Below are positions 41,015 through 50,843 of a stretch of 64,000 nucleotides of DNA, piece by piece; position 1 is the first letter of the stretch; every line of letters starts with the position of its first letter. The position numbers were made by a program, and so were the translations under genes. Source of the DNA: Candidatus Aenigmatarchaeota archaeon (GTDB taxonomy: Archaea; Aenigmatarchaeota; Aenigmatarchaeia; CG10238-14; SCSR01); contig JAVZHQ010000001.1 in NCBI GenBank assembly GCA_038998335.1, positions 704,001-768,000 of the forward strand. The letters run 5' to 3'. The notes under the pieces are model-generated. The model searched no databases. It saw only the letters and a program-made list of their open reading frames with translations, and was not told where the DNA came from.

Positions 41015-42613
41015 ATGATAAAAAACATAAGGTTTTTAGTGCTCTTAGCTTTTCTTATAATTTCTGTTTACTTTTTGCTTGCTCCTTTACTTTTTATACC
41101 TAAAGGAGTTGTTGTAGTTTCTTTAGACGAGAACAACAAATGCGAAGGAATAAGGGAAGGAAGTATAATAACCGAAATGCGTGGCACTGCAATTTCAAGC
41201 GAAGAAGATTTTGAAAACTATTTGAAAAATGTTAAGCAAGGGGAATACGTAAGCATGGTAATAAACAACTTGCCAGGAGGATGCATAGCTTTAAATGATA
41301 GTTATCTTGGAATAACAGTGAAAAATTTTGAAAGAAAGGGTTTAAAGTTTGGAATCGATTTAGCTGGAGGAAAAGCTTCATTTTTTTCTTCAACCCAAGA
41401 CTTAAAAAAAGTAAAGGAAATTCTTGAAAAAAGGATTGAAGTTTTCAAGTTTCCTGATGCTAGCGTTTCTGTTTCTGATAAAACAATAAGAATAGTAAGT
41501 TTAAGAGATGAGAAGCTTGAGCCTTTGTTGATAAGAGGAAAATTTGAAGCAAGGATTTCAGAAGAAGTTAAACTAAAAAACAACACAGGAAAATTGCCTT
41601 TGGGTAAAGAAGATTATACCATAACTCTTGAAAATGAAAAAATAAAAATAAACGAAAGTTTTTACGGAGAAAACGAAAGTTTTGTTTTGCAAGGAATAGA
41701 ATTTAAAATAATAAACATAACAAACTCAAGTGTTTTACTAGAAGCTTTAATTTTTACAAAAAAAGATATTAAACAAATTTCTTACAGTTTTGTTAAGTAT
41801 GAACCTTTAGCTAAACGCTACGAATTTAACATTCCGGTTGAAATTTCTGAAGAAGCCTCGGAGAGATTTTCAAAAATTATAGATAGAATGCCAACAACTA
41901 CTGAATCTGGTTCAATAGTTTTAAGTGGAAGGTTGTTGTACTATCTTGATAATAAAGAAATGAGCAATCTTGCTATACCCTTTTCTCTTGTTGGAAGAAA
42001 AATAAGCTCAATCTCTATTTTTGGTTTAAGGGAAAGTGAGGAAGCAGCAATTCTAGATAAAAACAGAATTGAAGCTTCCTTAAAAACAGAGGATTTGGAA
42101 CCTCTTAAACCGATTAAAACAGAAAATTTGGAAGCAACTTATCCTATGCTTACAACTTACTTCTTTGCTGCTTTGATAACTATTGAAATTTTGTTTTCTT
42201 TGTTTGTTTTTCTAAGGTACAGAAAAAAAGAACTTTTGTTCTACTCGTTAACTCTTTCTTTAATCCAGGCTTTTTTAATCTTTGGTATTAACGCAATTGC
42301 TCAAAACCTAGTTCCAAATAGTTGGTTAATAAACTCAAACACTCTTCTTGGAATTTTAACAATAACAATTTTCACATTGTTCCAATTTGTTCTTGTTCTT
42401 GAAAAAAGAGTTAAAAAAAGAGAGTTAAGCTTAAGTTTTAAACTTAAAAAATTAATTGGTCTTTCAAACTTTTTGAACATTTTAATAGTAATTTCTTCCT
42501 TTGTACTCCTTTTTGTTTTTAAAACTTTTGGCTTAAGTTTACTAACAGGCTTTGTTTTTGGTTTCTTGTTTTTAATTCCTCTTTTTGAGGAAAGGGTAAG
42601 AAAATTCACTTGA
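41015..42613 (+). CDS. divergent SecD-like protein with PDZ-like insert
   Basis: N-terminal TM, LKFGIDLAGG, ILEKRI, GKFEARI, A.ERF, C-terminal TM bundle. Confidence 0.65.
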   Translation: MIKNIRFLVLLAFLIISVYFLLAPLLFIPKGVVVVSLDENNKCEGIREGSIITEMRGTAISSEEDFENYLKNVKQGEYVSMVINNLPGGCIALNDSYLGITVKNFERKGLKFGIDLAGGKASFFSSTQDLKKVKEILEKRIEVFKFPDASVSVSDKTIRIVSLRDEKLEPLLIRGKFEARISEEVKLKNNTGKLPLGKEDYTITLENEKIKINESFYGENESFVLQGIEFKIINITNSSVLLEALIFTKKDIKQISYSFVKYEPLAKRYEFNIPVEISEEASERFSKIIDRMPTTTESGSIVLSGRLLYYLDNKEMSNLAIPFSLVGRKISSISIFGLRESEEAAILDKNRIEASLKTEDLEPLKPIKTENLEATYPMLTTYFFAALITIEILFSLFVFLRYRKKELLFYSLTLSLIQAFLIFGINAIAQNLVPNSWLINSNTLLGILTITIFTLFQFVLVLEKRVKKRELSLSFKLKKLIGLSNFLNILIVISSFVLLFVFKTFGLSLLTGFVFGFLFLIPLFEERVRKFT

Positions 42614-43136
42614 AAATTTTTTCTAGAATTTTTGATGAAGTTTTTTCTGTTAAAACCCTTGGAAAAATTAAACCTATAAGCGAGCCAACTATAACATCCG
42701 AAGGATAATGCACACCAGAATAAATAGAAGAAAGAGGGATTAACACTAACAAATAAAAAGCAGAAAGTTTTTTAAGCCAACTTGGAAAACTTTCAGGGAT
42801 GAAAAAGAAAGAAAGGTAAGCTATAAAAGCATGGGAAGAGGGAAAAGAGGGGTCTGCTTTTTTAAACACAACGTTTATTTCTTGACTAGCATCATAAGGT
42901 CTTTCTCTTCCAACTAAATACTTAAGTGAAACCACAAAAATATAACCAATAACAGCAACAACAAAAAGATGAAAAAGCTTTTTGTGTTTTTTTGTTCTAA
43001 ACAAGTCAAAAGCAACGTAAATCAAGTAAACATAAACCGAGTAGATTATAAAAATTGCAAGATAAACTAGATAAACAGAAAAAAAGTTTGAGTTTAAGAA
43101 TTTAACTATTTCTAAGTCTAGCTCGTTTAAATTCAT
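42606..43136 (-). CDS. PAP2 family (lipid pyrophosphate) phosphatase
   Basis: K...GRERP, SFPSSH, GVHYPSDV.VG. Confidence 0.9.
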   Translation of the reverse strand: MNLNELDLEIVKFLNSNFFSVYLVYLAIFIIYSVYVYLIYVAFDLFRTKKHKKLFHLFVVAVIGYIFVVSLKYLVGRERPYDASQEINVVFKKADPSFPSSHAFIAYLSFFFIPESFPSWLKKLSAFYLLVLIPLSSIYSGVHYPSDVIVGSLIGLIFPRVLTEKTSSKILEKIFK

Positions 43137-45820
43137 AGCTTAACATACCTCCCTCTTGCTTCGCCAAAATAAAATAGAACTTCTCCCCCACAAACAGAAC
43201 ATTTTCCTATCAAAGGAACTCTTCTAAAAGTCTTATTGCATTTGTTACAGACAAAGCCTTCAAAATCATTTAAAACTTCCTCTTGTTTTTTGTGGTTAAA
43301 AGCTTCAGAAATAGATAAAAGCCTTCCAAAACTTATTAGCTCAGATTTCTTTATTCCTAAAGCATCGAAAACTCTTTCTAAAGGTGGTAAAACTTGACTT
43401 TCAATGTAATATCTTGAATCAATCTTTAAGTTATGAGCTTTTACATATTCTGGATCCTCTGCTCTTTCTGAAAGCATTTGTGTACCTTGAACTATAACGT
43501 AACCTATTCTGTCGCCAATCCCAGGAGCTCCTGCTGGCGACCTTTTTCTTAACTTTTTAACAAGCTCAATATGGGGCTGAATTCCTTTGTATTCTTTTAA
43601 AGATTTTGTGATTCCTCTTGTTATAACCAATTCTTCAATAGGAATCTCATTCCTGTTTAACTTCCCTAAAACTTCTCTAACATATTTTAAAGCTTTTTTG
43701 GGGTTTTGCTCTTTTAGAATTATATCTATAACCTTGTACAAGGTTTTGGAAACTAAATCACACCAATCTCTTCTAACAGTTTCTATTCCTTTCATCACTA
43801 TCTTATCTTTCCATTCACCATTAGATTTTTCAAAGTTCCAGCCTGCATACCTTTTTTTGGTTAAAACGAGCAATGTTTTGAATATTCCTTCGATTTTCAT
43901 TTTAACTATGCCTTCATGCTCTTTATTTATAAAATCAGAAAGCTCTTCCCCAAGTTTCAAAGCCTCTTCTAGATCAAGAGTTGGGAGCTTAACCATTATA
44001 GAATCTGTGTCACCATAAACAACTTCATAGCCCTTTTTGGTTTCAACTATTTTTTTCGTTTTTTCTATTAGAAATCTCCCGCAACTTGTTATTGCATTAG
44101 CAATTTCCAAAACATAAAGCCTTGCTCTTACATAACCAGTATAACCATAAAAAGCGTTTGCCATTATTTTCAAAGCATACTGTTTTGAATCCAAAACCTT
44201 TTTTTCATTTTCGTTCTTAGCTTTTTCCATCTCTTTTTTAACCTTATCTCTTTCTTCTATTAAAAATTTTAAAATTTTTGGAATTATTCCTTCTCTTACT
44301 TCCCTTTTAACAAACAAAGCTCCAGAAGGTGTTTTTATAGTTTCTCCCTCACTCTCTTTGATAACTAAGGTTGTCGGGCAAATGTTAAAGGAGATGAAGA
44401 TTGAAGGATACATGGAACGAAAATCTAAGTAAGCAACGCAATTTGTGTGTAAGCCAACTTTTGGTTCAAGAACCAAAGCTCCTTTCAAACCTTTTGCTTC
44501 CCTTTCTTCCATTCTTTTAAAAACCTCTTCAGAAGAAGGTTTTGTTGGAATCACAAAACCTCTTTTGTTGAACTCTCTTAACAATAAATTTTCTACTCTT
44601 GCGCTTTCTCTACTATCCAAAACATCTTGTAAAAGTAAGCCAGAAACTTTTGAAAGTTCAATGAACTTACTCAGCATATCCTTTTCGAGTAAAAGTTTAA
44701 GTGTAAGCTCTGCATCCTTTCTTGCATAGTTTATTAGCTCATGTTTCTGCTCCTCTGAACCATTCCAGTATTTTGAAATCTCACTATGGGTTATGTCTAT
44801 TTTCTCCTCTTTTAACAATTCCTTAGCAACATCTCCTAAGCCGTATCTCTTAAGCCTCAACAAACCCTTTTCAACAGCCTCCTTAACAAGTTCATAAACA
44901 TCAACTACAATTCTTCCAAAAGAGGAATGTCTGTACCTTATTCCAACTTTTTTGGAGTTCGTGGATTTTTGCTGACATCTTCCCAAAAGCCTTGGAATTT
45001 TATTCACTCTTAATCTTTCGAGAATGTAAGGTAAATCAAAATTATTTATGTTATAACCAACTATTATATCTGGATCAAAATTTTTCACTATCTCGATAAA
45101 CTCTTGCAACATTTCACTTTCATTAGAAAAAACGAGGACATCCTTTTCAAACCTTTTTATTGGTTTAGAAACAAGAACCAAAGTGTTATTATTCTCGTAA
45201 GCTGGGAAAAAAGAAAGACTTATTATTATTATTGGGTCTTTAACTGGATTTGGGATACCTTCTTTACCTGGAGCAACTTCTATATCCAAACTCAAGTACT
45301 TGAAACTAACGTTTGTTTTCTCTTCTACTTCTTCAAATTTACTCGCGTTTATTATTTTGTCTGCCTTTACAAGAATTGTGTTCGCGCTTTCACCTTCTAC
45401 TTTTATCCAACCCATTCCAGAAATGTTAAAGTCTGCCATAAAACGATATTTAAAGAGAATGTCTGCTTCAAAAATTTTTTCAATAAAATTTTTTTTGTTT
45501 AACTCTTCCCTAATCTCTGGAACTTTTGAAGGGTCGTTAACAGTTACTCTCAGCATTTTTGTTTTGTTTTTGGTAAAACCTATGGGCAAGAATTTTTCCT
45601 CTTCCCTTATTTCTACTAGTAAAGAAGAAAATGTTTTTTTCATGAACTCAACAAATTCTTCTTCACAATTTTTCTTTGGTAAGACATAAAAATACGGTAA
45701 AAACTTATCATAAAATGCGCAGACAGTTTTACCTTCTTTTGTCTTACCAAAAACTCTTAAGACTGGTTTATTGTTCAAAGGAATATAATCACAATCAAGA
45801 ACCTGAAAAGTCACTTCCAT
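43133..45820 (-). CDS. polB: family-B DNA polymerase with intact exonuclease and polymerase motifs and a C-terminal Zn finger
   Basis: DIE, GYNINNFDLPY, YARKDA; LDFRSMYPS, KIMANAFYGY, YGDTDS, KKRY; C-terminal CNKC..FRRVPLIGKCSVCGG. Confidence 0.96.
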   Translation of the reverse strand: MEVTFQVLDCDYIPLNNKPVLRVFGKTKEGKTVCAFYDKFLPYFYVLPKKNCEEEFVEFMKKTFSSLLVEIREEEKFLPIGFTKNKTKMLRVTVNDPSKVPEIREELNKKNFIEKIFEADILFKYRFMADFNISGMGWIKVEGESANTILVKADKIINASKFEEVEEKTNVSFKYLSLDIEVAPGKEGIPNPVKDPIIIISLSFFPAYENNNTLVLVSKPIKRFEKDVLVFSNESEMLQEFIEIVKNFDPDIIVGYNINNFDLPYILERLRVNKIPRLLGRCQQKSTNSKKVGIRYRHSSFGRIVVDVYELVKEAVEKGLLRLKRYGLGDVAKELLKEEKIDITHSEISKYWNGSEEQKHELINYARKDAELTLKLLLEKDMLSKFIELSKVSGLLLQDVLDSRESARVENLLLREFNKRGFVIPTKPSSEEVFKRMEEREAKGLKGALVLEPKVGLHTNCVAYLDFRSMYPSIFISFNICPTTLVIKESEGETIKTPSGALFVKREVREGIIPKILKFLIEERDKVKKEMEKAKNENEKKVLDSKQYALKIMANAFYGYTGYVRARLYVLEIANAITSCGRFLIEKTKKIVETKKGYEVVYGDTDSIMVKLPTLDLEEALKLGEELSDFINKEHEGIVKMKIEGIFKTLLVLTKKRYAGWNFEKSNGEWKDKIVMKGIETVRRDWCDLVSKTLYKVIDIILKEQNPKKALKYVREVLGKLNRNEIPIEELVITRGITKSLKEYKGIQPHIELVKKLRKRSPAGAPGIGDRIGYVIVQGTQMLSERAEDPEYVKAHNLKIDSRYYIESQVLPPLERVFDALGIKKSELISFGRLLSISEAFNHKKQEEVLNDFEGFVCNKCNKTFRRVPLIGKCSVCGGEVLFYFGEARGRYVKL

Positions 45821-45829
45821 ATTTCTTAA

Positions 45830-47008
45830 TTATACAAAATCTATTTTAATAGTTTCTCTTGTTTTCAAGTTTACCAACCAAAAAGTAGGTTCAGTTAAAA
45901 AACTTCCGGTTGTTAAAATTGTAGTTCCTTTATAATTTAATATTGAAGGAATATGAAAATGACCGGAAGCAACAATATCTGGAATTAAATCTATAAGGAA
46001 TGGGTTGTTTACATAAATTTCTTTACTTGAAGTTGGAATTTGTCTTTTTCTTAAAAAGTTCAACAAAATTTTGTTCGGTTGGATATTTGTGAAAGAAAAA
46101 GGGAAGTTAAAGTTTGGGTGAAGAAGTAAGAAATTCAGAGATTTTTCAATTTTAAGTGAAGTTGGATTTAAAAATGAGTTTTTATTTTCTGGGTCGATTT
46201 CACCTTTCAACCAAGTGTAAGAATAATTTTTTGGTAAATTATTAAACAATTTTTCGATATCTTCAAGTTTTGAAGATATATCGCCAAGAATAAAAACATA
46301 AAGTTTTTTGTAGTAGGAGTTGTTAACCCAATCTAAAAATTTCTCATAACTTTTTTTATTAAAATTTTTTTCATCCATATGAAAATCCGAAACAAAAAGG
46401 CAAAAAATTTCTTCTGTTGTTTTGTTTATCTCTTTTTTTAAAGGAATGTCTGGTAAAACGATTTTTTTAACAAAAATTCTTTCCCCTTCTTTCTCACAAA
46501 CTAAACCTAGAATTTCATCTTCTAAAATAAACTTAAAATCTTCCTCTAAATTTTCAAAATAAACAGCTTGCTCGCCTGTAAAATCTTCAACAACCAAACT
46601 TTTTTCTTCTTCATTTTTTTCTTTAACCATAACTATCAAAGAAAACTTCCTTGTTCTCTGTGAAATCTTGTTTATAGAAATCAAGTTTACTAGATCAAAA
46701 TGTTTGGTTAAGAGTTTTCTTATTTCCTCATATTTTAAGGAAAGAAAGTTCGTATAATCTGAAACGCTTAAAATTTTTTCTTCCTTCTTAGGAGTTTTCA
46801 AGATATCGATTTGATAAAAAATTTTACTTTCTATTTCTTTTAAAATTTCGGTTGTTATTATCAAAGGGTAGTTTGGTAATTTTTTTAGTTCTTCTAAGTA
46901 GTATTTTATGTTTTTTCTTTCAAGTAAATACTCTAAAGCTTCAGGATGTAGTTGAAAACCATTTTTTAAAAACTCTTTTATTATTTCTTGTCTTTCCATA
47001 GAATCCAT
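45830..47008 (-). CDS. DNA polymerase D small subunit (DP1)-like protein with degenerate phosphoesterase site
   Basis: helical N-terminal domain (IIKEFLKNGFQLHPEALEYL), OB fold (VEDFTG), FVSDFH, LGDI, NP, FLRKR, IPDIVASGHFH, YKGT. Confidence 0.85.
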   Translation of the reverse strand: MDSMERQEIIKEFLKNGFQLHPEALEYLLERKNIKYYLEELKKLPNYPLIITTEILKEIESKIFYQIDILKTPKKEEKILSVSDYTNFLSLKYEEIRKLLTKHFDLVNLISINKISQRTRKFSLIVMVKEKNEEEKSLVVEDFTGEQAVYFENLEEDFKFILEDEILGLVCEKEGERIFVKKIVLPDIPLKKEINKTTEEIFCLFVSDFHMDEKNFNKKSYEKFLDWVNNSYYKKLYVFILGDISSKLEDIEKLFNNLPKNYSYTWLKGEIDPENKNSFLNPTSLKIEKSLNFLLLHPNFNFPFSFTNIQPNKILLNFLRKRQIPTSSKEIYVNNPFLIDLIPDIVASGHFHIPSILNYKGTTILTTGSFLTEPTFWLVNLKTRETIKIDFV

Positions 47009-47015
47009 AGAATTA

Positions 47016-47273
47016 TTATCTTTTTAATATATAAACTGTAAGACCTTTCTTACCTTCTTTTTTAGAGTGAGGAGTAGGAATGGATTCTACTTTACCAACT
47101 TCAACTAACTCCTCTAAATATTTAGAAATAGTATTCCAGCTTACTTCCTTTCCAATTCTTTTGCTAACCATGTTACGAATTGCGTTTATTGAGATTGGAG
47201 TATTTATTTCTCTCAAAACTTCTATTATAAGGTTTTGAACTTCAAACCTTTTACTAGGTCTGCCTCTTTTCAT
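47016..47273 (-). CDS. winged-helix DNA-binding protein
   Basis: IIEVL..PISI.AI..., VSWNTISKYLEELVE.GKV, beta wing. Confidence 0.8.
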   Translation of the reverse strand: MKRGRPSKRFEVQNLIIEVLREINTPISINAIRNMVSKRIGKEVSWNTISKYLEELVEVGKVESIPTPHSKKEGKKGLTVYILKR

Positions 47274-47359
47274 CTTTTCCCTTAAAGATTTTTTATAAAT
47301 TTTCTAAATTAAGTATGAATAAGTAGTATAAAAAAGTTTAATTTTTAGAGTGAGGTTAT

Positions 47360-47432
47360 TTCATAAAAATTTTCTGAAAGTTCATAATTATTGTTTGAAA
47401 GTTCATAAAAATTTTCTGAAAGTTCATAAAAA
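47360..47432. repeat. 3.5 tandem copies of a 21-bp unit TTCATAAAAATTTTCTGAAAG
   Basis: units at 47360, 47381 (variant TTCATAATTATTGTTTGAAAG), 47402 and partial at 47423. Confidence 0.9.
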
Positions 47433-47509
47433 ATATTAGTTATATTTTTTGGTTTTATTTTTAAACAAACAAAAACACTTACAGTTTATTCAAACTTTTT
47501 TCTAAAAAT

Positions 47510-47893
47510 TTATAAAAATTTCATCAAACCATTTATCATGAAAAATTTAATTATAATTGCTCGAACAAAATTTTCCTTTCCTTTTAGTGGTTCATAACTT
47601 GTTGGGTTAGAATGTTTTACCTTAATTAACAAGTTCATCTTAACTAGTTTATTCAATCTTTTTCTCAACGCTTCTATACCTATCTTAAAATGATGAGTAT
47701 TTTTCAGTTCACTATAAAGAAGTGGAAAACAATAAGGTTGGGTATCGTTTGGAAATTCTTTTCCAGTCATATAAAATTTTCTTAGAATTTGGATGTCAAC
47801 AAAATCTAAACGTTCGATGAAATTCAGAATTTCATCTTTTATTTCTGTATTTTTTTCCAAAGAAATGTTTATAAACGAATCCACACTATTCAT
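47510..47893 (-). CDS. hypothetical winged-helix protein
   Basis: LDFVDIQILRKF, ALRKRLNKLVKMNLL, SNPTSY wing; GGGGT SD. Confidence 0.7.
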   Translation of the reverse strand: MNSVDSFINISLEKNTEIKDEILNFIERLDFVDIQILRKFYMTGKEFPNDTQPYCFPLLYSELKNTHHFKIGIEALRKRLNKLVKMNLLIKVKHSNPTSYEPLKGKENFVRAIIIKFFMINGLMKFL

Positions 47894-47979
47894 TTTTACC
47901 CCATTTTTCTCTTATACTAAAACAAAATTGTGTTAATTTTTTTCTCTTTAATAATAAATACATTTCGGTAATTCAGAAT

Positions 47980-48666
47980 TCATATCAAACTAATTATTTT
48001 CACGTCAACTTTTCCGTTAATAACATCAATTATTCCACAATAACCCTCAGGAAATCTCCCAGGATTAATTATTTTTGTGGTTTCAATCTCATCCAAACCT
48101 CTTGCTTCATGTACATGTGAGCAAATAGCAACCTTAGGTTTATAATTTTCTATAAATTTTCTAACAGCTTCTGATCCTATGTGCGCTCCTGTATAAGCAA
48201 TATCAACTTTTGAATTGAAAGGAGGAACATGGGTTACTTGAACTTTTACTTCACAATTCTTTACTTTTTCATAACCTTTTTTTAAACCTTCTTCAATTTC
48301 ATTTTCACTAGGTTCTAAAGGCGTGTGAAAAGGAGTTCTTGCCCCACCAAAACCATAGAAACCAATATTTTCTATTATTTTTCCTTCTCCATGTAGGTTT
48401 ATCCCTTTTTCTTTAAACAATTCTATCAAATCTCTATCAAAATTTCCTGGGATTGCTAGCATAGGCTTCTTAAAAGTCTTAAACTCTTCAATAATAAGCT
48501 CGCCAATATCTCTGGCTTCAAAACCCTTTGGAAGATTGTAGTCTGTAAAATCTCCAAGCAAAACTATAACATCAAAATTTATAAAAGAAATTTTATCAGT
48601 ATAAGTGATTATGTTTTCTACATCGTTATGTATGTCGCTAACTGCTAAAATCCTCATCAAACTCAA
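47980..48666 (-). CDS. calcineurin-like metallophosphoesterase
   Basis: SDIH, GDFTD, PGNFD, THVPP, SHVHE, NPG. Confidence 0.9.
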   Translation of the reverse strand: MSLMRILAVSDIHNDVENIITYTDKISFINFDVIVLLGDFTDYNLPKGFEARDIGELIIEEFKTFKKPMLAIPGNFDRDLIELFKEKGINLHGEGKIIENIGFYGFGGARTPFHTPLEPSENEIEEGLKKGYEKVKNCEVKVQVTHVPPFNSKVDIAYTGAHIGSEAVRKFIENYKPKVAICSHVHEARGLDEIETTKIINPGRFPEGYCGIIDVINGKVDVKIISLI

Positions 48667-48695
48667 TATATTAAATCTTTTATAAAAATAAATTG

Positions 48696-49025
48696 ATGGT
48701 AGTTAGCAAAAGAAAAGGCTACAGGGTTGAAAGAAAAATAAGAAAAATTTTTGAAAGTTATGGTTGGAAAGTAGTTAGAGCAGGAGGAAGTCTTGGAGAA
48801 GCAGACCTTATTTGCATAAAAAATAAAAAATGTATTTTACTTCAAATCAAGTCAACAAACAAAGGTGTTTTATACTATTATGGTTATTCTTCTGATAAGT
48901 TTGAGGGGTTTCCATTTTATTTAATAGTTGACTTTGGTTACGGAAAAATAAAAATAACAAAACCAAAAGAAAAGATTACTTTGGAAGATGGGAAAGATTT
49001 AGAAACTTTTTTAAAAAAATATTAA
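48696..49025 (+). CDS. hjc: archaeal Holliday junction resolvase
   Basis: KG...ER, GW.VVRAGGS.G..DLI, QIKST. Confidence 0.8.
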   Translation: MVVSKRKGYRVERKIRKIFESYGWKVVRAGGSLGEADLICIKNKKCILLQIKSTNKGVLYYYGYSSDKFEGFPFYLIVDFGYGKIKITKPKEKITLEDGKDLETFLKKY

Positions 49026-49060
49026 AATAGAGTAAGCTATAATATTAAAGGGAAGATTTT

Positions 49061-49609
49061 ATGCCTGTGTTAGTTAAGGACATAATGAGCAAGCCTGCAG
49101 TGACAATAGAAGAGAATAAATCAGCAAGGGTTGCAGGCGAGCTAATGAAAAAAAAGAGGAAAGGAGCCTTAGTAGTCGTGAAAAACGGAAAACCTGTAGG
49201 TATTGTAACAGATAGCGATTTAATAAGGAAGGTTGTAGCAAAAAACCTGAAGCCTTCTGAAGTTAAAGTTAAAGATATAATGTCTAAGCCTTTGGTAACA
49301 ATTAGCCCAGAGGAGAATATAATCGAAGCAAGCAGGAAAATGAAAAGAAGCAACATAAAAAGGTTGCCAGTAGTGGAAAATGGAAAAGTTGTTGGTGTGC
49401 TTTCCTTAACAGACATAGCAAAAACTTCTCCTGAAATGCTTGATTTGCTTGAATATAGGTTAAGAATGAGGGAAGAACCTTTTGGTATAAAAGAAAAATT
49501 TACTTCAGGGATTTGTGAAAATTGTGGGAATTATAGTGAGCATTTAACCGAAGTTAACGATCAATGGATTTGTGAAGATTGTAAGGATGAGCTGGAAAGC
49601 GAATATTAA
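49061..49609 (+). CDS. CBS-pair protein with C-terminal Zn ribbon
   Basis: two CBS repeats, GICENCG...WICEDC. Confidence 0.9.
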   Translation: MPVLVKDIMSKPAVTIEENKSARVAGELMKKKRKGALVVVKNGKPVGIVTDSDLIRKVVAKNLKPSEVKVKDIMSKPLVTISPEENIIEASRKMKRSNIKRLPVVENGKVVGVLSLTDIAKTSPEMLDLLEYRLRMREEPFGIKEKFTSGICENCGNYSEHLTEVNDQWICEDCKDELESEY

Positions 49610-49618
49610 AATGGTATT

Positions 49619-50089
49619 ATGCTTACTGATCAAATTAGAGAAATTCAAAAAGAAGTTCTGAATTTTAAAGAAGTACCGATAATAGTCGAAGGAAAAAAAG
49701 ATGAAGAAGCTATAAGAAAGCTTGGCTTTCAAAAAATTGTAAAAATTTCTGGAAAACCCTTGGAGAAAGTTTTTGAAGAAGTTAGCAATTACAAATCTGT
49801 GATTATTCTTTCAGATTTCGATGAGGAGGGTAAAAAAATTTTTGCAAAATTGAGGGAATTACTCTCTTCGCATAGAATAAAAGTTCACACCTTTTTAAGG
49901 AACAAGATTAAATCAACCCTCAAAATCAAAAAAATTGAGGAAATCAACTCTTTAATAAAATTTATGGAGGATGATTACTATGGCAAAACTTGCTCAATCT
50001 ACGATAAAATATTTAATAGAAGTAGAGTTTTCCTGCGACGGGATGGTGGAAAAACCAGACGTAATAGGGGCAATATTCGGGCAAACTGA
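49619..50089 (+). CDS. small TOPRIM domain protein (RNase M5/primase-like)
   Basis: IIVEGKKD, ILSDFDEEG; 3' end overlaps dnaG. Confidence 0.8.
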   Translation: MLTDQIREIQKEVLNFKEVPIIVEGKKDEEAIRKLGFQKIVKISGKPLEKVFEEVSNYKSVIILSDFDEEGKKIFAKLRELLSSHRIKVHTFLRNKIKSTLKIKKIEEINSLIKFMEDDYYGKTCSIYDKIFNRSRVFLRRDGGKTRRNRGNIRAN

Positions 50090-50843
50090 AGGTTTGCTTG
50101 GTCAAGATTTGGATTTAAGGGAATTGCAAAGAAGTGGAAGAATAGGAAGAATTGACGTTGAACTTAACGTGACTGAAGAAGGAAAAACTATTGGTAAGTT
50201 CTTCGTTCCTTCAAGTCTTGATTCATCAGAAACAGCTTTACTAGCAGCTTCTTTTGAGACTATAGAAAGAATTGGGCCATGCAACGCAAAGGTTAAAGTT
50301 AAAACAGTAAAGGATGTGAGAAATGCTAAAAGAGATTATGTTCTTAAAAGGGCGAATGAACTTTTAGAAAAACTTTTGAGCGAAGAGATTCCTTCAACTT
50401 CAAAGATTACTGAACTAATAAGGGAAAACGTGAGAGCTGCACAGATAACAGAATTTCAAGGCTTGCCAGCAGGCCCTGATGTTCAAAATTCAGACGAAAT
50501 AATAATAGTCGAGGGAAGAGCAGATGTTGTTAACCTCTTGAAAAATGGGATTAAGAATGTTATCGCAATTGGAGGAGCAACGATACCTAAAACAATAATA
50601 GATTTGACAAAAGAAAAAGTGACAACTTTGTTTGTAGACGGTGATAGAGGAGGAGAACTAATAATCAAAGAGCTTCTTAACCTCGGTGAAATTGATTATA
50701 TAGCAAGGGCACCAGAAGGTAAGGAAGTGGAAGAACTAACAAAAAAAGAAATTTTTAAAGCTTTGAGAGAAAGGGTTTCTATCGAGCAGTATAAACCAGA
50801 AGTCAAAACTAAAGAGTTAACTGAATTTACCAAACAATTATAA
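49980..50843 (+). CDS. dnaG: archaeal DnaG (primase-like, exosome-associated), short form
   Basis: VEKPDVIGAIFGQTEGLLG..LDLRELQ.SGRIGRI, VEGRADV, DGDRGG, GKEVEEL. Confidence 0.93.
   Translation: MAKLAQSTIKYLIEVEFSCDGMVEKPDVIGAIFGQTEGLLGQDLDLRELQRSGRIGRIDVELNVTEEGKTIGKFFVPSSLDSSETALLAASFETIERIGPCNAKVKVKTVKDVRNAKRDYVLKRANELLEKLLSEEIPSTSKITELIRENVRAAQITEFQGLPAGPDVQNSDEIIIVEGRADVVNLLKNGIKNVIAIGGATIPKTIIDLTKEKVTTLFVDGDRGGELIIKELLNLGEIDYIARAPEGKEVEELTKKEIFKALRERVSIEQYKPEVKTKELTEFTKQL

Follow-up and report, generated by a model that had tools for sequence, protein, structure and literature searches.

The locus considered here raises the question whether a family-B DNA polymerase (PolB) of an Aenigmatarchaeota archaeon and the DP1-like protein encoded directly upstream of it together form a replicase of eukaryote-like build, and whether that DP1-like protein is a spare copy kept beside an ordinary PolD or the only DP1 that the organism has. 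The reading favored by our analysis, to which we assign a probability of roughly 0.85, is that the locus encodes a two-subunit replicase common to most Aenigmatarchaeota, in which a PolB with a DP2-type tail would be paired with the sole, degenerate DP1 as its B subunit, DP2 having been lost. The features on which this reading draws (Table 1) lie within a window of 64,000 nucleotides, the whole stretch of DNA that was analyzed.

Table 1. Features of the PolB/DP1 locus, in window coordinates
Feature	Position	Strand	Remarks
PAP2-family phosphatase gene	42606..43136	(-)	Start overlaps PolB stop by 4 nt
PolB, family-B DNA polymerase, 895 aa, B6-aenigma1 type	43133..45820	(-)	ORF, Pfam, NCBIfam, homolog alignment, solved-structure matches
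C4 zinc finger CNKCNKTFRRVPLIGKCSVCGG, PolB residues 858–879	43184..43249	(-)	Homologous to Zn-III of PolD DP2
DP1-like gene, 392 aa: N-terminal domain, OB fold, phosphodiesterase (PDE) domain without motif III	45830..47008	(-)	Profile and structure matches
Winged-helix protein, 85 aa, N-terminal MKRGRP arm	47016..47273	(-)	Opens the packed unit, 7 bp ahead of DP1
Direct repeats, 21-bp period, TTATGAACTTTCA x3	47360..47429	(-)	About 90–155 bp upstream of winged-helix gene

The polymerase and its C-terminal zinc finger

The initial annotation had described an intact PolB starting 9 bp after a DP1-like gene on the same strand, and this description is confirmed by the open reading frames, by Pfam (DNA_pol_B, E 3.3e-121; exonuclease domain, E 4.8e-37), and by the 9 nt that separate the DP1-like stop from the PolB ATG on the minus strand. 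Among 12 homologs, the residues of Exo I (D179/E181), Exo II (N259/F261/D262), and Exo III (Y365/D369) are invariant, as are those of polymerase motifs A (D466/Y471), B (K551/N555), and C (D604-T605-D606). The top relative among solved structures is the catalytic subunit of human Pol delta (E 1.7e-121), followed by Thermococcus PolB (E 9e-111). In the proposed replicase this protein would be the catalytic subunit, a family-B polymerase with a working 3'-5' exonuclease of its own. A second PolB, encoded elsewhere in the same genome, carries no such tail.

The last ~40 residues of PolB would constitute a single C4 finger derived from Zn-III of DP2. Four cysteines (C858, C861, C874, C877) together with R867, G872, and K873 are invariant in the 12 homologs, and residues 856–883 match two NCBIfam models of DP2, one with an E-value of 1.2e-5 (model positions 1042–1069 of 1125) and the other with 5.3e-5. 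When the last 65 aa were compared with PDB chains, residues 1120–1149 of P. abyssi DP2 came out on top (E 7.2e-6), T. kodakarensis DP2 was also matched (E 2.4e-4), and both outranked all other chains. A word-based protein search with the tail matched only 10 close PolBs and no DP2, and was thus uninformative as to where the tail came from. Judged by these profile and chain matches, the resemblance of the tail to DP2 exceeds chance, and the finger is indeed of the DP2 type that had been suggested for it. The motif had correctly been placed at the end of PolB, although its boundary at 43190 fell 6 nt short of the position given in Table 1; all other coordinates were exact. The tail comprises one CxxC...CxxC motif followed by only 16 residues; it is considerably shorter than the C-terminal domain of DP2, and the helical bundle found there after the finger is absent. 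A 2025 paper describes the Aenigmatarchaeota tail as a degenerate DP2CTD whose predicted structure differs (PMC12680538).

A degenerate DP1 as probable partner

The partner protein is recognized by the NCBIfam DP1 model (E 1.3e-42), albeit at 146 bits against a cut-off of 445 bits, by solved DP1 chains (E 3e-16), and, through a profile of its own family, by T. kodakarensis DP1 (E 2.5e-37). Pfam DNA_pol_E_B (PF04042) has no match genome-wide at E <= 0.01; since it misses even the DP1-like gene, this model is too insensitive for the family. Scores against the Pfam metallophosphoesterase models likewise remain under their cut-offs.

Residues 269–272 occupy what we take to be motif III of the nuclease site, canonically G-N-H-D. 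Here they read G-E-I-D and face PGNHD of T. kodakarensis DP1, in a stretch of the alignment that is not significant, and the Asn at this position occurs in just two of 38 family members. The surviving ligands are kept in 22–35 of the 38, with D243 (22/38) and H350 (27/38) pointing to relaxed constraint on the nuclease ligands, while residues E141/D142/T144/G145 of the OB groove are retained in 36–38 members and thus exceed them in conservation. These patterns support the nuclease degeneracy that had been ascribed to this gene. It is also conceivable that the protein has remained active as an Mre11-like nuclease, serving as a second proofreader or acting independently in repair, and is not a dead scaffold; the present copy does retain six candidate metal ligands (D208, H210, D243, H297, H350, H352), which is why the loss of nuclease activity is something we infer. 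Replacement of the motif III Asn/His by Glu/Ile, the variability of D243 and H350, the metallophosphoesterase scores, and the intact exonuclease that PolB itself possesses argue against such a nuclease and make it very unlikely. In the favored replicase, the partner would be a DP1 shortened to 392 aa, from whose nuclease site the motif III Asn/His have disappeared.

No DP2 found in the genome or in most of the sampled phylum

The initial annotation regarded the DP1-like gene as a paralog beside a canonical PolD. This proved wrong. The assembly of this small DPANN archaeon (1.01 Mb, 90.4% complete, 9 contigs) contains this single DP1-like gene and no second DP1, and profile searches of this 90.4% complete genome did not find DP2: a full-length DP2 model matched only the PolB tail and one further stretch of 31 residues at E 0.0019. 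As neither DP2 nor another DP1 was found in the genome searched, the gene is its sole DP1 and not a paralog. The contrary arrangement, a sole DP1 pairing with DP2, was also checked, and only its first half holds, for the gene is indeed the sole DP1 but DP2 was not found.

That DP2 is present but escaped assembly, its partner being this DP1-like protein in an ordinary PolD, would be compatible with an assembly of this completeness and contig number. A sample of 151 Aenigmatarchaeota genomes, 89 of them of high quality, renders it extremely improbable, since DP2 is unmatched in 143 of the 151, in 86 of the 89 high-quality genomes, and in 30 of the 31 belonging to the same family. The N-terminal domain of DP2 is found in the remaining eight, namely all seven sampled members of one family (f11) and a single 3-kb contig. 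DP1 reading frames in those DP2-bearing f11 genomes span 460–523 aa, as against the short, degenerate DP1 described above.

Within the same sample, the DP1-like profile matches 146 genomes, and the PolB tail occurs in 138. The tail profile itself matches 145, seven of these matches covering only the zinc part, within f11 DP2 genes. In each of the five f11 genomes that were read (of seven sampled) there is a single PolB, which has no zinc tail and is nearer to the tail-less PolB of the present genome (434–461 bits) than to the tailed one (208–247 bits). A zinc-tailed PolB and DP2 were thus never encountered in one genome, in that all seven f11 matches to the tail profile fall inside DP2 genes and the five sets of PolBs that were read lack the tail.

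Linkage and predicted binding of PolB and DP1

Linkage of the two genes is strict. PolB lies directly downstream of DP1 in 14 of 14 related loci fetched, nine of them from Candidatus Aenigmatarchaeota, which also provides the closest relatives of the pair, and the finger is present in all 11 complete PolB tails from these loci.

Binding between the two proteins, by comparison, is either predicted here or taken from the literature. Prediction of the PolB/DP1 complex gave a score of 0.70 against 0.00 for the best of three controls, although a similar complex, that of PolD, has already been solved, so that the score may reflect model memory. The mark calibrated for such scores is attained by 58 of the 80 complexes with solved structures, as against 2 of 110 mismatched pairs, in a calibration that, unlike the present prediction, used neither custom alignments nor a zinc ion. 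The runs had at least 83% of contacts in common, with a partner pLDDT of at least 64. In the predicted interface, PolB R866–G872 lies against DP1 residues 85–93, 127–129, and 141–146, making the RRxP loop of the finger the predicted docking element; the groove residues that it meets on DP1 are the best conserved of the family.

This predicted interface agrees with the published one of PolD, where the KxRRxP loop is seated in an acidic OB/PDE groove of DP1 and a Zn-III peptide of 20 aa binds DP1 with nanomolar affinity (PMC6355029). For the Aenigmatarchaeota themselves, yeast two-hybrid assays and AlphaFold3 models reported in Nat Ecol Evol in 2025 indicate that DP1 binds PolB-DP2CTD, and in the two-hybrid assays DP1 bound the tailed PolB but not tail-less PolBs (PMC12680538). 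It might still be argued that the two genes are merely co-transcribed and their products form no stable complex, a view to which the missing helical bundle of the PolB tail lends some weight. We consider this improbable in light of the gap between the complex score and its controls, the conservation of the docking groove above the nuclease ligands, the two-hybrid data published for the phylum (PMC12680538), and the failure of zinc-tailed PolB and DP2 to occur together among the sampled f11 genomes. The PolB:B-subunit-like heterodimer joined through a DP2-type finger, as originally proposed, is thus supported by the Zn-III match, the linkage in all 14 loci, the complex prediction, and the two-hybrid results from the same phylum.

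In the proposed two-subunit replicase, the basic RRxP loop and the extreme C-terminus of PolB would dock on the acidic OB-fold groove of DP1, much as Zn-III does in PolD. Since the finger would dock on a nuclease-degenerate DP1, the latter would act as a non-catalytic B subunit, DP2 having been lost. DP1 may have been kept as a scaffold joining the polymerase to the replisome, for instance to GINS via its N-terminal domain.

Neighboring genes and upstream repeats

The PAP2-family gene follows PolB in five of the 14 related loci and is likely an operon passenger, outside the polymerase. An origin next to the locus is not claimed, the sole full orc1/cdc6 match lying on another contig (C2:76312-77340). 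No sign of a mobile element was seen around the locus, where GC content is 0.31–0.32 over the PolB gene, matching most of the window, and gene order is conserved; GC dips only over an AT-rich upstream stretch, to 0.25 at 46001–48000.

At the upstream end of the unit, the winged-helix protein is conserved more strongly than DP1. Its fold resembles generic DNA-binding regulators (Zur/Fur, PadR/LmrR; best E 8e-4), and the 21-bp repeats ahead of its gene are candidate operator or promoter-like boxes. The gene is lineage-restricted; families f1, f3, f5, and f6 possess it, and f13 and f21 give sporadic matches. An obligatory third subunit, similar to the N-terminal part of Pol32, was considered and rejected as a general role, because the winged-helix profile occurs in 43 of the 151 phylum genomes versus the 138 with a tailed PolB, and because of the generic regulator fold. 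A tentative and rather doubtful suggestion is that the replicase operon of one branch gained a dedicated first gene, whose winged-helix product, with its AT-hook-like MKRGRP arm, may bind the TTATGAACTTTCA repeats and control or physically join PolB–DP1. Neither the tight DP1–PolB operon nor the winged-helix gene and repeats at its upstream end are mentioned in the main texts of PMC7544198 and PMC12680538.

Relation to known polymerases and implications

On the strength of its motifs, tail, and host phylum, the pair is provisionally assigned to the published B6-aenigma1 PolB with inactivated DP1, with which it shares the phylum, one DP2 Zn-III-like motif, the absence of DP2, an inactivated DP1, and a PolB exonuclease, and from which it shows no essential difference. 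A place within PolB clade B6 is putative, and is favored indirectly by Pol delta being the top solved relative. The initial annotation had looked for novelty in the adjacent degenerate DP1 and in the module as a whole. Neither is new, as Kazlauskas et al. (2020, NAR) had already described for Aenigmarchaeota a one-motif PolB tail, absence of DP2, and an inactivated DP1, and had proposed the same replacement scenario (PMC7544198). The PolB3-DP2CTD of Baldrarchaeia is comparable in that a PolB ends in a fused C-terminal domain of DP2 origin, DP2 itself is lost, and DP1 is retained and bound, but there the domain is of full length, with two motifs and the helical bundle, as opposed to one finger and ~16 residues (PMC12680538).

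Archaeal PolD (P. abyssi, 6HMS/6T8H) shares with the present pair the Zn-III KxRRxP docking module and the DP1 domain order (N-terminal, OB, PDE). It differs in that the catalytic subunit here is a family-B enzyme and not the two-barrel DP2, that the DP1 nuclease site is degenerate, and that DP2 was not found in this genome. Eukaryotic Pol alpha, delta, and epsilon resemble the pair in that a family-B subunit carries a C-terminal metal-binding module, which in the present case is predicted to tether it, as in eukaryotes, to a DP1 homolog that has been inactivated, and among solved structures its PolB core is nearest to Pol delta. In contrast to the eukaryotic C-terminal domains, it has a single metal motif where these have CysA and CysB; the helical bundle is missing, and we identified no additional accessory subunit.

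As this eukaryotic parallel was stated in 2020 and tested in 2025, the present locus is only one more example of it. Its additions are the tight operon, a sampled family that retains DP2 but lacks a tailed PolB, and a winged-helix gene of lineage-restricted occurrence that is preceded by repeats. If the role suggested for that gene is true, its product would, in this lineage specifically, regulate a eukaryote-like polymerase or belong to it as a third component. The pair of zinc-finger PolB and dead DP1 would itself represent a living archaeal parallel of the eukaryotic replicative polymerase build, and a useful model for the transition.

The polymerase and its gene cluster

Four genes are closely packed on the minus strand, encoding a winged-helix protein, a DP1-like protein, the family-B polymerase (PolB) and a PAP2 phosphatase (see table). 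The adjacency of PolB to the DP1-like gene, pointed out in the initial annotation, extends beyond this genome, the PolB start lying directly 3' of DP1 in 14 of 14 related loci. Nine of these come from Candidatus Aenigmatarchaeota, to which the best-matching named homologs of PolB and the DP1-like protein also belong.

Features of the polymerase locus and its surroundings
Feature	Position	Strand	Remark
PAP2 phosphatase gene	42606-43136	minus	start overlaps PolB stop by 4 nt
PolB, 895 aa	43133-45820	minus	9 bp after DP1-like gene
Zinc-finger motif CNKCNKTFRRVPLIGKCSVCGG	43184-43249	minus	PolB residues 858-879
DP1-like gene, 392 aa	45830-47008	minus	7 bp after winged-helix gene
Winged-helix gene, 85 aa	47016-47273	minus	
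Repeat array with partial fourth TTATGAACTTTCA box	47360-47429	minus	
Three exact TTATGAACTTTCA boxes, 21-bp period	47375-47429	minus	upstream of winged-helix gene
Metallophosphoesterase, 228 aa	47980-48666	minus	two genes upstream of degenerate DP1
Hjc-like resolvase, CBS protein with zinc ribbon, Toprim ORFs	48693-50843	plus	divergent from metallophosphoesterase
Two overlapping ORFs	49619-50089; 49971-50843	plus	one Toprim domain each

PolB matches the Pfam DNA_pol_B (E 3.3e-121) and exonuclease (E 4.8e-37) domains, and its exonuclease and polymerase motif residues are invariant in an alignment of 12 homologs: D179 and E181 (Exo I), N259, F261 and D262 (Exo II), Y365 and D369 (Exo III), D466 and Y471 (motif A), K551 and N555 (motif B), and D604-T605-D606 (motif C). 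The nearest solved structure to this core is human Pol delta (E 1.7e-121), with Thermococcus PolB slightly behind (E 9e-111). Close relatives (L007:7179-9570 and L013:672-2861; proteins P0125, 1251 aa, and P0134, 1256 aa) contain an intein after approximately residue 473, just past motif A; these inteins carry the homing-endonuclease domains PF14528 and PF14890, and the window's PolB has no intein. The genome encodes a second PolB of 830 aa, lacking the cysteine tail, on contig C2, and its only full orc1/cdc6 match (G000:C2:76312-77340) likewise lies on a contig other than that of the polymerase operon.

The zinc-finger tail and its proposed DP1-like partner

That PolB ends in a DP2-type zinc finger, as initially proposed, is borne out by database comparison. 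In two NCBIfam DP2 models, positions 1042-1069 (of 1125) align with PolB residues 856-883 (E 1.2e-5 and 5.3e-5), and the best PDB match to the last 65 residues is P. abyssi DP2 residues 1120-1149 (E 7.2e-6), T. kodakarensis DP2 (E 2.4e-4) also ranking above all non-DP2 chains, of which the next are CTCF fingers (E 1e-3 and worse). On these matches the tail is identified as Zn-III, the C-terminal zinc domain of DP2. Only 16 residues follow the motif, in which C858, C861, C874, C877, R867, G872 and K873 are invariant among the 12 homologs. Three of the 14 related PolBs run past contig ends, and the finger is present in 11 of 11 complete tails, four of which (L012, L015, L018, L020) have CxC (GKCxCGG) in place of the second CxxC pair.

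The DP1-like protein matches the NCBIfam DP1 model with E 1.3e-42, although its score of 146 bits stays below the model's cut-off of 445; solved DP1 chains are matched with E 3e-16 by the single sequence and E 2.5e-37 by a 38-member profile. Calcineurin-like phosphoesterases follow the motif scheme DxH / GD / GNH(D/E) / H / GHxH. The window's protein retains the candidate nuclease ligands D208, H210, D243, H297, H350 and H352, with G-E-I-D opposite the G-N-H-D of DP1 in a weakly aligned stretch. Among the 38 family members these ligands are kept in 35, 31, 22, 28, 27 and 28, respectively, and the motif-III Asn in two; the nuclease ligands drift across the family, and the degenerate neighbor of a tailed PolB described in the initial annotation is real. 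Residues of the OB-fold loop VEDxTG are kept more often (E141 in 36, D142 in 38, T144 in 37, G145 in 36), and the docking surface is therefore more constrained than the active site. The metallophosphoesterase encoded nearby passes Pfam cut-offs (E 2.8e-18).

In PolD, the KxRRxP loop of Zn-III (R1131, R1132) is reported to dock in an acidic groove at the interface of the OB and phosphodiesterase domains of DP1, and a 20-residue Zn-III peptide to bind DP1 with nanomolar affinity (Raia et al. 2019, PMC6355029). A complex was predicted from the DP1-like protein, given an alignment of 38 rows, and the 75 C-terminal residues of PolB, given one of 12 rows, together with a zinc ion. The basic finger loop came to lie in the conserved acidic groove of the OB fold, like its counterpart in PolD, and the score was 0.70 (runs 0.70, 0.75, 0.68) versus 0.00 for the best of three controls. 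Among 80 solved complexes 58 reach this mark, compared with two among 110 mismatched pairs. Contacts agreed between runs by at least 83%, with partner pLDDT of at least 64, and the confident interface joined PolB R866-G872, V881-F883 and Y892-L895 to DP1-like residues 75-93, 127, 129, 141-146 and 163-164. Since PolD complexes have already been solved, this pass may reflect what the predictor learned from them, and the model shows likeness to PolD rather than binding by these copies.

The proposed PolB:DP1-like heterodimer is well supported, and the system is already known. Group B6-aenigma1 was described by Kazlauskas et al. 2020 (PMC7544198), and a later study (Nat Ecol Evol 2025, PMC12680538) names Aenigmatarchaeota and Baldrarchaeia as the only archaeal lineages keeping DP1 without DP2, reports from AlphaFold3 and yeast two-hybrid that in both DP1 binds PolB-DP2CTD and not tail-less PolBs, and terms the aenigmarchaeal tail degenerate and shorter. 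In Thermococcus, Gins51 is reported to bind the DP1 N-terminal domain (PMC9023282); by analogy, a GINS contact may be a reason for retaining DP1 here.

The upstream winged-helix gene and repeats

The 85-aa protein is a confidently predicted winged helix (pLDDT 85.7) resembling generic DNA-binding regulators (best E 8e-4), with a conserved MKRGRP N-terminal arm that we take to be AT-hook-like. Across loci it is more conserved (47-88% identity) than DP1 (29-87%). In a sample of 151 genomes of the phylum, own included, in which related genomes do not count as independent and genes may be missed in incomplete ones, 43 match its profile (30/31 of family f1, 7/7 of f3, 0/10 of f2 and 0/7 of f11), in 39 of them directly upstream of DP1 by coordinates. 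The two nearest relatives (L007, L008) have three TTATGAACTTTCA boxes each in the same place, one mismatch allowed, and L010 has looser variants; at least three box matches arose in 4 of 100 shuffles within the window. The reverse complement of TTATGAACTTTCA resembles a promoter-like GAAAGTTCATAAAA element right before the winged-helix start in relatives. The main text of Kazlauskas 2020 (PMC7544198) does not mention the gene context of the DP1-PolB pair, and main-text remarks on gene neighbourhood in the 2025 paper (PMC12680538) concern other genes, though the supplements of either may show it; this context, the winged-helix gene and the repeats might be a modest novelty.

DP2 and the tailed PolB across the phylum

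The genome assembly (1,009,365 bp, 9 contigs, 0.33% contaminated) is 90.4% complete, and within it the DP2 N-terminal domain has no match. Searched with a full-length DP2 model, the genome yields the tail of PolB (E 1.4e-6), a single stretch of 31 residues (E 0.0019) and nothing more. The DP1 model matches the DP1-like gene and no other, which is therefore the sole DP1 of the genome and not the paralog it had been called; the separate canonical DP1 and DP2 that were to be checked for are both missing from this assembly.

Of the 151 genomes, 146 match the DP1-like profile, 145 the tail profile and eight the DP2 N-domain, these eight being all seven of f11 and one (G090, of the same family as our genome) on a 3-kb contig. 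This contig (C64, locus L021) also bears a DP1 fragment, while the DP1-like gene and tailed PolB of G090 sit on other contigs; the finding reflects contamination or else a truly mixed state. In f11 the tail profile matches in its zinc part only, within frames encoding DP2, six of them 1102-1605 aa long and the seventh shortened to 246 aa, whereas in the other 138 genomes it matches a tail, with the full profile in most, in frames mostly of ~870-930 aa. Each of the five f11 genomes inspected contains a single PolB of ~770 aa that lacks the tail. At 37-42% identity (434-461 bits) it lies closer to our tail-less PolB than to our tailed PolB, with which it shares 29-34% identity (208-247 bits). 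With DP2 accompanied by a tail-less PolB in these f11 genomes and tailed PolB found elsewhere, the two thus substitute for one another across the phylum sample.
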